A stretch of 3,806 bases of DNA from Escherichia coli (GCF_003334255.1 NZ_QOWU01000114.1); one strand, 5' to 3'. Shown: positions 1 to 3,806, numbered from the stretch's first letter. A program made the numbers and translations. Notes: generated by a model from the sequence alone, not told the origin.

Positions 1-633
1 GCTAAGGTGAAGGATCTGACGCCGGGCGAGATGACGGCAGAATCCTACGATGATAACTACCTGGATGATGAAGACGCAGACTGGACCGCGACCGGGCAGG
101 GGCAGAAATCTGCAGGTGATACCAGTTTTACGCTGGCCTGGAAACCGGGAGAGGAAGGTCAGAAAGGGCTTATAGGCTGGTTTGAAAGCGGCGATGTCCG
201 GGCCTATAAAATCCGTTTTCCGAATGGCACGGTGGATGTGTTTCGTGGCTGGGTCAGCAGTATCGGTAAGGCCGTGACGGCGAAAGAAGTGATCACCCGC
301 ACGATGAAAGTCACTAACGTGGGTAAACCTTCTGTAGCGGAAGAACGCAGCAAAATTACGCCGGTCAGTGCGATTAAGGTGACGCCGACATCCGGTACGG
401 TGGCAAAAGGGAAAACAACCACCCTGACCGTTACTGTGGAACCGGAAAATGCAACGGATAAGACATTCAGGGCGATTTCCGCCGATCCATCAAAAGCCAC
501 CATTAGCGTGAAAGATATGACGATTACTGTGACGGGGGTTAAGGATGGAAAAGTCAGCATCCCTGTGATTTCCGGTAATGGTCAGTTTGCTGCGGTGGCT
601 GAAATTACCGTTAATAATGTGCCGGGTGGCTAA
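1..633 (+). CDS. V: Major tail tube protein (lambda gpV-like), 5'-partial; N-terminal tube domain plus C-terminal Ig-like (Big_2-type) domain
   Basis: Frame 1 is open from base 1 (GCT AAG GTG AAG GAT...) to TAA at 631-633. The GTG at 7 that the ORF track uses as a start is internal, since the frame is open upstream to the window edge. Translation ([44 protein letters not shown]...[33 protein letters not shown]...) matches my recollection of lambda gpV from about residue 40 onward. Roughly the first 40 codons lie upstream of the window. Confidence 0.93.
355..627 (+). other. C-terminal Ig-like (Big_2-like) decoration domain of the major tail protein
   Basis: The segment [86 protein letters not shown] shows the alternating T/V/S beta-strand pattern typical of bacterial Ig-like group 2 domains. 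Its position matches the known C-terminal Ig-like domain of lambda gpV. Boundaries are approximate. Confidence 0.7.
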
Positions 634-639
634 AGAGCT

Positions 640-644
640 GAGAG
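640..644 (+). promoter_or_regulatory. Weak Shine-Dalgarno-like element for G (GAGAG, 7 nt upstream of the ATG)
   Basis: The sequence taaaGAGctGAGAGataagcgATG lies between the V stop (631-633) and the G start (652). It is purine-rich but only a partial match to AGGAGG. Confidence 0.35.
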
Positions 645-1083: not shown

Positions 1084-1523
1084 ACTTTGCCCTCAGACTG
1101 GCGCGTGAGATGGGGAGACCCGACTGGCGCGCCATGCTTGCCGGGATGACATCCACCGAATATGCCGACTGGCACCGTTTTTACCGCACGCATTATTTTC
1201 AGGATACCCAGCTGGATATGCATTTTTCCGGGCTGACGTACGCTGTACTCAGCCTGTTTTTTTGCGATCCGGATATGCATCCCTCTGATTTCAGTCTGCT
1301 TGTCCCCCGGCATGAGGAAGAGCAGGTGGAGAGGCCGGATGAGGACAAAATGCTGATGCAGAAAGCGGCAGGACTTGCCGGAGGCGTCCGGTTCGGTGGG
1401 GACGGAGGGGGCGATATTTTATCGTCTGCGGATGTGGCGGATGTCATGGTGGATGATGCCGCATTAATGATGGCTTCAGCGGGGATTCCGGGAGGTGTGA
1501 GATATGTCCCAGCCGGTTGGTGA
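652..1523 (+). CDS. G-T: Tail assembly chaperone G-T fusion made by programmed -1 ribosomal frameshift; effectively join(652..1065,1065..1523)
   Basis: The -1 frame (ORF-track frame of 1110..1523) is closed by TGA at 1047-1049 and open from 1050 to TGA at 1521-1523. The G frame ends at 1083. The only X XXY YYZ heptamer in the 1050-1083 overlap is G GGA AAG at 1059-1065. The shifted reading gives ...SAGK-VFDGELNFALRLAREMGRPDWRAMLAGMTSTEYADWHRFYRTHYF..., which matches my recollection of the lambda G-T junction and T domain. Confidence 0.9.
1059..1065 (+). promoter_or_regulatory. -1 programmed ribosomal frameshift slippery heptamer G GGA AAG
   Basis: In the G frame, GGA is at 1060-1062 and AAG at 1063-1065, preceded by G at 1059. 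This is the same heptamer used for G-T frameshifting in phage lambda. It lies 16 nt upstream of the G stop codon. Confidence 0.9.
1491..1495 (+). promoter_or_regulatory. Shine-Dalgarno sequence (GGAGG) for the tape measure gene
   Basis: GGAGG at 1491-1495 is followed by an 8-nt spacer (tgtgagat) and the ATG at 1504. It lies inside the 3' end of the T reading frame. Confidence 0.65.
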
Positions 1524-3806
1524 TCTTGTTATTGACCTGTGTCTGGATGCGGTCCGTTTCGATGAGCAGATGAGCCGGGTAAGGCGTCATTTTTCAGGTC
1601 TGGATACTGACGCCAGAAAAACCGCAACTGTCGTTGAGCAGGGGCTGAGCCGCCAGGCGCTGGCTGCACAAAAAGCAGGGATTTCCGTCGGGCAGTATAA
1701 AGCGGCCATGCGAACCCTGCCCGCACAGTTTACGGATATCGCCACGCAGCTTGCCGGTGGTCAGAATCCCTGGCTGATCCTGCTGCAACAGGGCGGTCAG
1801 GTGAAGGACTCCTTCGGCGGGATGATCCCCATGTTCAGGGGGCTTGCCGGTGCGATCACCCTGCCGATGGTCGGGGTCACCTCGCTGGCGGTGGCGACAG
1901 GTGCGCTGGTGTACGCCTGGTACCAGGGAGATTCCACGCTTTCAGCGTTTAATAAAACCCTGGTTCTTTCCGGTAATCAGTCCGGACTGACTGCCGATCG
2001 CATGCTGACGCTCTCCAGAGCCGGACAGGCCGCAGGGCTGACGTTTAACCAGGCGAGTGAGTCACTGGCAGCCATGGTGAATGCCGGTGTGCGTGGTGGT
2101 GAACAGTTTGATGCCATCAACCAGAGTGTCGCGCGTTTTGCTTCTGCATCCGGTGTGGAGGTGGACAAGGTTGCAGAGGCTTTCGGAAAACTGACCACTG
2201 ACCCGACGTCGGGGCTGATTGCGATGGCGAAGCAGTTCCATAACGTGACGGCGGAGCAGATTGCGTATGTTGCTCAGTTGCAGCGTTCCGGCGATGAAAC
2301 CGGGGCATTGCAGGCGGCGAACGAGGCCGCAACGAAAGGGTTTGATGACCAGACCCGCCGCCTGAAAGAGAACATGGGCACGCTGGAGACCTGGGCAGAC
2401 AGGACAGCGCGGGCATTCAAATCCATGTGGGATGCGGTGCTGGATATTGGTCGTCCTGATACCGCGCAGGAGATGCTGATTAAGGCAGAGGCTGCGTTTA
2501 AGAAAGCAGACGACATCTGGAATCTGCGCAAGGATGATTATTTTGTTAACGATGAAGCGCGGGCGCGTTACTGGGATGATCGTGAAAAGGCCCGTCTTGC
2601 GCTTGAAGCCGCCCGAAAGAAGGCTGAGCAGCAGAGTCAACAGGACAAAAATGCGCAGCAGCAGAGCGATACCGAAGCGTCACGGCTGAAATATACCGAA
2701 GAGGCGCAGAAGGCTTACGAACGGCTGCAGACGCCGCTGGAGAAATATACCGCCCGTCAGGAAGAACTGAACAAGGCACTGAAAGACGGGAAAATCCTGC
2801 AGGCGGATTACAACACGCTGATGGCGGCGGCGAAAAAGGATTATGAAGCGACGCTGAAAAAGCCGAAACAGTCCGGCGTGAAGGTGTCTGCGGGCGATCG
2901 TCAGGAAGACAGTGCTCATGCTGCCCTGCTGACGCTTCAGGCAGAACTCCGGACGCTGGAGAAGCATGCCGGAGCGAATGAGAAAATCAGCCAGCAGCGC
3001 CGGGATTTGTGGAAGGCGGAGAGTCAGTTCGCGGTACTGGAGGAGGCGGCGCAACGTCGCCAGCTGTCTGCACAGGAGAAATCCCTGCTGGCGCATAAAG
3101 ATGAGACGCTGGAGTACAAACGCCAGCTGGCTGCACTTGGCGACAAGGTTACGTATCAGGAGCGCCTGAACGCGCTGGCGCAGCAGGCGGATAAATTCGC
3201 ACAGCAGCAACGGGCAAAACGGGCCGCCATTGATGCGAAAAGCCGGGGGCTGACTGACCGGCAGGCAGAACGGGAAGCCACGGAACAGCGCCTGAAGGAA
3301 CAGTATGGCGATAATCCGCTGGCGCTGAATAACGTCATGTCAGAGCAGAAAAAGACCTGGGCGGCTGAAGACCTGCTTCGCGGGAACTGGATGGCAGGCC
3401 TCAGGTCCGGCTGGAGTGAGTGGGAAGAGAGTGCCACGGACAGTATGTCGCAGGTAAAAAGTGCTGCCACGCAGACCTTTGATGGTATTGCACAGAATAT
3501 GGCGGCGATGCTGACCGGCAGTGAGCAGAACTGGCGCAGCTTCACCCGCTCCGTGCTGTCCATGATGACAGAAATTCTGCTTAAGCAGGCAATGGTGGGG
3601 ATTGTCGGGAGTATCGGCAGCGCTATTGGCGGGGCTGTTGGTGGTGGCGCATCCGCGTCAGGCGGTACAGCCATTCAGGCAGCTGCGGCGAAATTCCATT
3701 TTGCGACCGGAGGATTTACGGGAACCGGCGGCAAATATGAGCCAGCGGGGATTGTCCACCGCGGGGAGTTTGTCTTCACGAAGGAGGCAACCAGCCGGAT
3801 TGGTGT
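1504..3806 (+). CDS. H: Tail tape measure protein (lambda gpH-like), 3'-partial (about 767 codons in window)
   Basis: ATG at 1504 with a GGAGG ribosome-binding site. The frame is uninterrupted to the window edge; it is absent from the ORF track only because no stop falls in the window. Translation MSQPVGDLVIDLCLDAVRFDEQMSRVRRHFSGLDTDARKTATVVEQGLSRQALAAQKAGISVGQYKAAMRTLPAQFTDIATQLAGGQNPWLILLQQGGQVKDSFGGMIPMF... matches my recollection of lambda gpH. It has a long charged alpha-helical middle and a Gly-rich hydrophobic segment near the end of the window. Confidence 0.95.
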   Translation, partial: MSQPVGDLVIDLCLDAVRFDEQMSRVRRHFSGLDTDARKTATVVEQGLSRQALAAQKAGISVGQYKAAMRTLPAQFTDIATQLAGGQNPWLILLQQGGQVKDSFGGMIPMFRGLAGAITLPMVGVTSLAVATGALVYAWYQGDSTLSAFNKTLVLSGNQSGLTADRMLTLSRAGQAAGLTFNQASESLAAMVNAGVRGGEQFDAINQSVARFASASGVEVDKVAEAFGKLTTDPTSGLIAMAKQFHNVTAEQIAYVAQLQRSGDETGALQAANEAATKGFDDQTRRLKENMGTLETWADRTARAFKSMWDAVLDIGRPDTAQEMLIKAEAAFKKADDIWNLRKDDYFVNDEARARYWDDREKARLALEAARKKAEQQSQQDKNAQQQSDTEASRLKYTEEAQKAYERLQTPLEKYTARQEELNKALKDGKILQADYNTLMAAAKKDYEATLKKPKQSGVKVSAGDRQEDSAHAALLTLQAELRTLEKHAGANEKISQQRRDLWKAESQFAVLEEAAQRRQLSAQEKSLLAHKDETLEYKRQLAALGDKVTYQERLNALAQQADKFAQQQRAKRAAIDAKSRGLTDRQAEREATEQRLKEQYGDNPLALNNVMSEQKKTWAAEDLLRGNWMAGLRSGWSEWEESATDSMSQVKSAATQTFDGIAQNMAAMLTGSEQNWRSFTRSVLSMMTEILLKQAMVGIVGSIGSAIGGAVGGGASASGGTAIQAAAAKFHFATGGFTGTGGKYEPAGIVHRGEFVFTKEATSRIG
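3550..3690 (+). other. Gly/Ala-rich hydrophobic (transmembrane-like) segment within the tape measure protein
   Basis: Direct translation gives SVLSMMTEILLKQAMVGIVGSIGSAIGGAVGGGASASGGTAIQAAAA. This is a long apolar, small-residue stretch of the kind found in the C-terminal part of siphovirus tape measure proteins. Confidence 0.6.

Follow-up and report, generated by a model that had tools for sequence, protein, structure and literature searches.

Does a run of phage tail genes in a bacterial chromosome contain anything besides the tail genes themselves, e.g. an accessory gene, a defence system or some element not yet described? The stretch of DNA considered here (the window) comprises 3806 bases of one strand of Escherichia coli GCF_003334255.1 NZ_QOWU01000114.1, numbered from its first base, and carries the lambda-type tail genes V, G, T and H. 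A first-pass annotation of the sequence had assigned all of it to V, G, the G-T fusion and H, and had detected neither accessory cargo nor a new system. Our analysis agrees with it: the window is an ordinary lambda-type tail block. We regard it as almost certain that this is an uninterrupted internal slice of the tail (late) operon of an intact lambda-type prophage, and that it contains neither accessory genes nor mobile elements, tRNAs or defence systems. V-G-GT-H blocks of this kind are already known and are of the textbook lambdoid type.

Identity and genomic context of the window

Phage lambda (NC_001416 / J02459) aligned with the window over lambda positions 9072-12841, collinearly and as a single piece, at 86.6% identity. 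The alignment contained only seven small insertions or deletions (indels), each of 3-7 nucleotides (nt), at the V/G junction, at the end of G and in the middle of T. As these were the sole indels relative to lambda, no gene or other DNA has been inserted into the window. About 120 further lambdoid phage records matched the window as well, and the features annotated under the match were always V, G, T and H. The chromosomes of three E. coli isolates (G1/2, G6/7 and G8) contain the window at 100% identity, and E. coli ATCC 25922 and others contain it at 99.9%; 3743 of the 5426 complete E. coli genomes contain a match to it. The comparison with lambda and with enterobacterial prophages, which the first-pass annotation had put forward as a check on itself, therefore returned both a single-piece match to lambda and an identical copy within an intact E. 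coli prophage.

The prophage around the window in isolate G1/2 is complete. It has lysis genes, both terminase subunits, portal, protease, decoration protein, capsid, FI and FII, and continues with Z, U, V, G, T, H, M, L, K, I, J, Lom and the tail fibres. Within it, the window extends from codon 40 of V to codon 767 of H, and at this identical locus the RefSeq labels are tail protein, gpG, T and tape measure protein. Because the boundaries of V, G, T and H could be read from the translation, every base of the window could be assigned to one of V, G, G-T and H or to a spacer, the largest non-coding gap being 18 nt, as had been proposed. Gene boundaries, frame relationships, family membership, collinearity with lambda and the lack of inserted DNA are all direct observations.

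Many E. coli lambdoid prophages are defective, and a second related copy of the module is present in the genome (two places in the record), both of which would fit a decaying remnant of a cryptic prophage better than a working tail module. Against decay, V, G, T and H are all full length in the source genome and none has a premature stop codon, the slippery site and the frame overlap between G and T are intact, and annotation shows intact genes on both sides, all the way from the small terminase subunit to tail fibre assembly. Furthermore, substitution rates relative to homologues at codon positions 1, 2 and 3 of the sense frames were 0.059, 0.046 and 0.208, a pattern that, judged from sequence comparison, shows purifying selection on these frames. 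We therefore consider it highly improbable that the module is a remnant.

The four tail genes

V is already in progress at the first base of the window. Its 3' part (1-633, plus strand) comprises codons 40-249 of 249, in a frame that is open from base 1 and ends in a TAA at 631-633, i.e. the window holds the C-terminal five-sixths of the tail tube protein. The N-terminal tube domain (Phage_TTP_12) ends at about 339 and is followed on the same strand by a C-terminal, outward-facing immunoglobulin (Ig)-like Big_2 domain at about 364-600. V matched the major tail protein family phrog_41 (E 2.7e-101), and the full V protein matched the Pfam families Phage_TTP_12 (PF16461, amino acids (aa) 18-152, E 5.9e-69) and Big_2 (PF02368, aa 161-239, E 1.1e-18). 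Among solved structures, it matched the lambda tail tube chains PDB 6p3e and 9mfe (E ~1e-123) and PDB 2l04, the C-domain of gpV (E 5e-27). V therefore has both hallmarks of a lambda-type gpV, namely a tube domain with similarity to gpV and a C-terminal Big_2 domain. Its amino acid identity to lambda V is 75% overall, 85% in the tube domain and 59% in the Ig domain. The spacer that separates V from G (634-651, plus strand) is 18 nt long and contains a weak Shine-Dalgarno-like GAGAG before the start codon of G; homologues have GGAG-type motifs at this position.

G encodes the tail assembly chaperone and occupies 652-1083 on the plus strand, from an ATG at 652 to a TGA at 1081-1083 (143 aa). It scored 167.2 bits against TIGR01674 (phage_lambda_G; cut-off 74.45), with profile positions 1-138 of 138 covered, it also matched phrog_42, and its RefSeq name is gpG. 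The T segment (1065-1523, plus strand) lies in the -1 frame relative to G and scored 212 bits against TIGR01715 (phage_lam_T; cut-off 77.35). Amino acid identity to lambda is 69% for G and 71% for T, and the family phrog_32165 models G and T together as one profile of 290 positions; a comparison of G-T with solved structures gave no match.

H begins at an ATG at 1504, seven bases after a Shine-Dalgarno sequence GGAGGT (1491-1496, plus strand), so that its start overlaps the end of T by 20 nt, and it runs off the end of the window at 3806 (plus strand; codons 1-767 of 853, the 5' 90% of the gene). It contains a TMP_2 domain at about 1663-2271 (PF06791, E 3.9e-69) and a Tape_meas_lam_C domain at about 3382-3606 (PF09718, E 1.6e-21), both on the plus strand, and scored 1054 bits against phrog_24 and 380.7 bits against TIGR01541 (cut-off 104.75). 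The full H of the source genome has 853 aa, which is the length of lambda H, is 92% identical to it in amino acid sequence and matched chain H of PDB 8iyk, the lambda tape measure protein, over residues 1-853 (E = 0). The two domains and the TIGR01541 score above its cut-off together identify H as a lambda-type gpH.

The assignment of the window to V, G, G-T and H is thus supported by collinearity with lambda, RefSeq annotation, family cut-offs and solved lambda structures alike. Lambda and the window share gene order, overlaps, the GGGAAAG heptamer in the same register, domains and the length of H. They differ in that the DNA is only 60-85% identical upstream of about 2230, in that V, G and the T part of the window are longer by 3, 3 and 8 aa, respectively, and in that the C-terminal tail of T has diverged. 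This tail (1400-1523) is the most variable part of the module, with 60-66% identity to lambda and indels. T of the window overlaps H, whereas that of the prophages Stx2_95 and Stx2_14744 is some 35 aa shorter and stops about 43 nt short of H.

The G-T frameshift

The heptamer G GGA AAG at 1059-1065 (plus strand) is the sole GGGAAAG in the window and lies in the X XXY YYZ register of G. The -1 frame, i.e. that of T, is closed by a TGA at 1047-1049 and then open from 1050 to a TGA at 1521-1523; because it is open from 1050, the slip site falls within a stretch of 34 nt (1050-1083) in which both frames are open. The heptamer in register, the -1 frame open across it and the G stop codon shortly downstream are together the sequence features of a -1 frameshift site. 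A G-T fusion is known for lambda (PMC5009743, PMC3296357), where GGGAAAG is the slip site, slippage occurs in ~4% of passages and its frequency is modulated by thiolation of tRNA-Lys(UUU) (PMC3296357). By analogy, T of the window would be expressed only as the C-terminal part of a 290-aa G-T fusion (652-1065 joined to 1065-1523).

When ten diverged G-T loci were aligned, the heptamer was found in identical columns and in the same register in three different canonical forms, of which GGGAAAG belongs to the lambda and window types, AAAAAAG to the Shiga toxin (Stx) prophage types and GGAAAAG to phi80, N15, HK225, mEp043 and LLS. Beyond these ten loci, GGAAAAG also occurs in mEp460 and a Providencia phage. 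For phi80, N15 and LLS, the slippery site had been annotated by the depositors. A heptamer that keeps its position while its sequence is exchanged lends comparative support to the predicted G-T frameshift. The same arrangement is found in long-tailed double-stranded DNA phages in general, in which two overlapping open reading frames (ORFs) lie between the major tail and tape measure genes, with a heptamer near the end of the first ORF and a second ORF that has no start context of its own; frameshifts of this G-T type are conserved (Levin 1993, Xu 2004, as cited in PMC5009743). The arrangement in the window does not differ from these in kind and is a textbook example of them.

RefSeq PGAP annotates T as a stand-alone coding sequence that starts at an ATG at 1110 (1110-1523; 13110-13523 in the coordinates of the source locus, L002), and several GenBank phage records annotate T likewise. 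This ATG has no convincing ribosome-binding site. To annotate T as a gene of its own in place of the frameshifted G-T fusion is a recurrent annotation error.

Proposed working of the tail module

The functions of the four proteins and the slip frequency are here taken over from lambda by analogy. A few ribosomes would shift back by one base at G GGA AAG and so read past the stop codon of G in the frame of T, and the frequency with which they do so would fix the ratio of G to G-T, which in lambda is ~30:1. As in the homologous lambda system, the tape measure protein H would then be coated by G and by the G portion of G-T, and the T part would recruit V, which would polymerise around H to a length set by H. 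In lambda, the tape measure protein gpH is bound by gpG and by the G portion of gpGT, the T portion binds gpV and initiates polymerisation of the tube, and the two chaperones, which are absent from the virion, are required at a molar ratio of ~30:1 (PMC5009743). Lambda V, G, T and H are all essential, and the late genes are read from a single 27-kb mRNA (PMC10695390).

Search for cargo, RNAs and signals

We scanned the window for anything that a four-gene description would miss. ARAGORN found no tRNA or tmRNA genes in it, and an Rfam scan of the window at E values up to 1 returned only two sub-threshold and implausible eukaryotic matches (E 0.23 and 0.33). The repeats in the window were limited to short imperfect ones of 14-24 nt and one Tandem Repeats Finder array (score 32), none of them significant, and a scan for Chi sites gave nothing significant either. 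There were no sigma-70-like promoter sites on either strand, compared with an expectation of 2.1, and the four terminator-like sites returned by the terminator scan, all on the minus strand, compare with an expectation of 3.0. GC content ranges from 47% to 63% across the window, with no AT-rich island. Neither strand gave an integrase-like or other non-tail family match. The sense proteins matched only tail families in PHROGs and NCBIfam; PADLOC, against which ten antisense ORFs but not the sense proteins were scanned, gave a best match of E 0.052 (11 bits).

These scans bear out the first-pass annotation in its claims that the window leaves no intergenic space for promoters, morons, toxin-antitoxin pairs or defence genes and has no repeats, tRNA or integrase signals. 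An insertion of a moron or other cargo was rejected on the basis that the largest indel relative to lambda is 7 nt, that promoter-like sites are absent and that there is no GC island. A defence or toxin-antitoxin system was rejected because the antisense ORFs had no family match and the matches of the sense proteins were to tail families only.

Nothing contradicts the description of the window as a block of four tail genes, but two observations have to be set beside it. First, a look-up of exact sequences found two of the long antisense ORFs in the window, of 176 and 172 aa, among GenBank/ENA drafts, in clusters of 51 and 24 members, respectively. Second, the 5' part of T shows low synonymous variability and contains two predicted hairpins, neither of which the four genes explain. 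We deal with them in turn.

Antisense and alternative-frame reading frames

All ORFs of at least 30 aa were listed, and shuffles of synonymous codons in the four sense genes served as the null distribution for their length. The longest antisense ORFs have 227, 192, 176 and 172 aa. The 227-aa ORF (630-1313, minus strand) lies opposite G and T, and the 176-aa (2680-3210, minus strand) and 172-aa (3156-3674, minus strand) ORFs lie inside H. If these were real overlapping genes, they would amount to cargo hidden within the tail genes. In addition to their presence in the databases, the 176-aa and 172-aa ORFs are open in lambda too, and antisense overlapping genes have been claimed for E. coli O157:H7.

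The lengths themselves are not exceptional, as the longest antisense ORF in the synonymous shuffles averaged 274 aa, 66% of the trials reached at least 227 aa, and 19% contained four ORFs of at least 150 aa. In a comparison with eight homologues, each of the four longest ORFs gained between one and five stop codons wherever the sequence had diverged, e.g. at 1151 in lambda for the 227-aa ORF. None of ten antisense ORFs had a match below E 0.02 in PHROGs, PADLOC or NCBIfam, promoter-like sites are absent from both strands, and substitutions track the sense frame. No gene is called at the antisense ORFs in RefSeq PGAP or in the annotated phage records examined, and the deposited 176-aa and 172-aa entries are all unnamed or labelled "hypothetical protein" and come from draft-genome pipelines; they are probably artefacts of gene callers. 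A published reanalysis of lambda ribosome profiling (PMC5737525) makes no mention of novel ORFs, antisense or frameshift, and a literature search for antisense overlapping genes in tail genes found nothing specific. Taking both sides together, we give next to no credence to the idea that the long antisense ORFs are genes.

The first-pass annotation had named a database hit from the minus strand as an observation that would count against it. To the letter such hits exist, namely the two ORFs deposited as hypothetical proteins, but not in spirit, as they are automatic calls only. Some of the shorter antisense and alternative-frame ORFs stay open in homologues, to an extent indistinguishable from chance. 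Among these, an ORF of 118 aa (204-560, minus strand) is open in six of eight relatives, yet its openness is forced by amino acid composition, because the sense codons that give an antisense stop in that frame are those for Tyr, His and Gln, and such codons are nearly absent from that part of V. The antisense and alternative-frame ORFs were accordingly rejected as genes, their lengths being those of chance, with stops in diverged relatives for the four longest and no family matches for the ten that were scanned.

Mosaic ancestry of the block

Segments of high identity and the positions of mismatches showed the window to be a three-way recombinant mosaic relative to the relatives compared. Positions 1-432 are at least 97% identical to a prophage of the Stx1_8100 type, with a short dip at 192-222, positions 796 to about 2165 are at least 97% identical to phage PhiR12_5, and positions 2233 to about 3644 are at least 97% identical to lambda. 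The change from Stx1_8100-like to PhiR12_5-like sequence falls in a junction zone at the end of V and the start of G (432-796, no strand assigned), and the change from PhiR12_5-like to lambda-like sequence in a second zone inside H (2166-2232, likewise). A three-part mosaic of this kind is the usual lambdoid pattern.

The individual relatives are alike and different in keeping with these segments. PhiR12_5, PhiR12_1 and the Stx2a-converting phages (e.g. LC727840) are at least 97% identical to the window in G from 796 onwards, throughout T and in the first third of H, to about 2165-2219, and T of PhiR12_1 and PhiR12_2 is 100% identical to T of the window. All these phages differ from it in the last two-thirds of H (60-88% identity) and in most of V; their H allele is a different one, of 2574 nt in PhiR12_5. 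In the Stx1_8100 type, and in the Stx2_95/Sakai type with it, the architecture is the same and the N-terminal part of V (1-432) is 96-97% identical, whereas the slippery heptamer of these types is A AAA AAG and their G is only ~51-61% identical to that of the window. H of Stx2_95 and Stx2_14744 is longer than the window type, at 2646 nt; Stx1_8100 has no gene annotation in this region.

Two other database matches stand apart from this pattern. MW057783.1 (Campylobacter phage CJLB-4) equals lambda in the coverage, identity (86.6%) and bit score of its match to V-H, and OQ055246.1 (Xanthomonas phage vB_XooS_NR08) contains a piece of 338 nt that is 99.7% identical to positions 3030-3367. Both look like contamination with lambda DNA or mis-assignment.

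The conserved 5' part of T

A sliding scan showed that synonymous divergence in T at about 1086-1295 is roughly half that of an equally conserved part of H. The proportion of variable third positions is 34% in the 5' part of T (1086-1300), well below the values for the other segments, namely 92% (V), 70% (G), 74% (3' part of T) and 69% (5' part of H). Two hairpins are predicted in the same region, both on the plus strand. Hairpin 1 (1099-1134) has 14 pairs and a GAGA loop, is GC-rich, is built on a direct repeat (GACTGGCGCG twice) and begins 34 nt 3' of the slippery site. Hairpin 2 (1229-1263) has the shape of an intrinsic terminator, with a bulged stem of 12 bp (1229-1256; about -15 to -16.4 kcal/mol) followed by a run of seven U (1257-1263) that forms part of Phe-Phe codons; lambda has five U here. 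Our terminator scan had missed hairpin 2 because its stem is bulged.

We asked whether this part of T might carry cis-acting RNA elements besides the four genes. Such elements may serve as partial attenuators or stabilise 3' ends, and so keep the V and G message above that of H-J, or may modulate the frameshift and hence the ratio of G to G-T. As ~96% of ribosomes would stop at the G stop codon, the mRNA of T would be mostly free of ribosomes and able to fold. The low third-position variability counts in favour of this reading. However, the depletion was regional and not specific to the stems, with 26% of paired and 37% of unpaired third positions variable (Fisher p = 0.30), so that stem-specific constraint was rejected as a proof of RNA structure.

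For hairpin 1, folding was stronger than in dinucleotide shuffles (z = -3.1), and the structure was kept in 13 G-T loci, in which 88.9% of cells were paired, compared with 23-43% in slid registers. Three pairs were changed on both sides, a number reached in 7 of 500 shuffles; the covariation is weak. Set against this, synonymous recodings of the conserved peptide LAREMGRPDWRAML already fold to -21 to -23.5 kcal/mol, and the excess of hairpin 1 over such recodings was small (z = -1.66, p = 0.07 in the window, fourth of 117 tiles), i.e. the conserved peptide forces most of its stability. In -1 frameshifting, the usual spacer between a slippery heptamer and a stimulatory structure is 5-9 nt, and the spacing of hairpin 1 is well beyond this. 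Given the spacing and the share of the folding energy that the peptide dictates, hairpin 1 was rejected as a classical frameshift stimulator.

For hairpin 2, comparison with recodings that preserve the peptide gave a z score of -2.7 for the window; the value for lambda was -3.8, and those for the Stx types ranged from -2.2 to -3.1. A control tile in H was significant in the window lineage only. An equally strong hairpin followed by a T-run appeared anywhere in the window in 3.5% of recodings (window-wide p ~0.035). Among the lambda, Stx and window lineages, hairpin 2 varies only in its bulge, in its loop and at one wobble-compatible position, with the exception of PhiR47_2, which has one G-G mismatch at the closing pair 1229-1256. 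Annotation by depositors points in the same direction: the mEp460 record has a rho-independent terminator within T, and those of N15 and HK225 have stem-loop terminators in the V-G interval.

Several results argue against reading this steadiness as function. No compensatory changes were found in the stem among the lineages compared, and because the lineages that carry hairpin 2 are 85-97% identical there, shared ancestry or recombination would explain its invariance. Hairpin 2 is absent in the relatives phi80, N15 and mEp043, whose peptide differs. A search of E. coli genomes found no further lineage at the hairpins, and viral contigs gave only loci of 99-100% identity, which are uninformative. 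Late transcription in lambda is antiterminated by Q and should read through intrinsic terminators. Nothing specific came from a literature search for terminators within the late operon of lambda or for transcriptome data on it, and no report of an element of this kind was found in the literature searched.

The evidence for a function of the two predicted hairpins is at most suggestive. Overall, we think it unlikely, though not negligibly so, that the 5' part of T carries RNA elements. The most economical reading of the region is that of a strongly conserved protein segment combined with an island exchanged by recombination; in Stx2_14744, for example, identity to the window reaches 97% or more over 1097-1282 only. 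The mosaic structure, the conservation of the 5' part of T and the two hairpins go beyond the account given in the first-pass annotation, and none of them is accessory cargo.

Regions outside V-H in the source prophage

Cargo had been expected to lie outside V-H, and the candidate accessory genes in the flanks of the source prophage are indeed found there. The candidate accessory regions are L002 1725-2353, 22525-23124 and 26645-27609. A TonB-family ORF and a small minus-strand ORF lie between the lysis genes and terminase; Lom is likewise outside V-H, and a minus-strand S-adenosylmethionine-dependent methyltransferase is encoded near the tail fibre genes. There is also an Rfam match to IS009 inside the tail fibre assembly gene. 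The spacer between I and J (L002 18422-18764) is 343 nt long, AT-rich and non-coding, contains a terminator-like hairpin (AAAACCCCGGTATC...GATACCGGGGTTTCTCTTT) and is ~91% identical in many Stx and PPompW prophages. This spacer had no Rfam match; it might be a small RNA locus of the prophage.

Implications

The window is a clean negative and can be set aside as a standard tail-assembly block, and the reasoning by which the first-pass annotation reached that view from the sequence was sound. Were the two hairpins in T RNA elements after all, they would explain why variability at synonymous sites there is only about half that of the rest of the module. They would then set the step-down from abundant V and G to scarce H-J, or tune the ratio of G to G-T, and would thereby give an operon that ranks among the best studied a further, cis-regulatory level of control.

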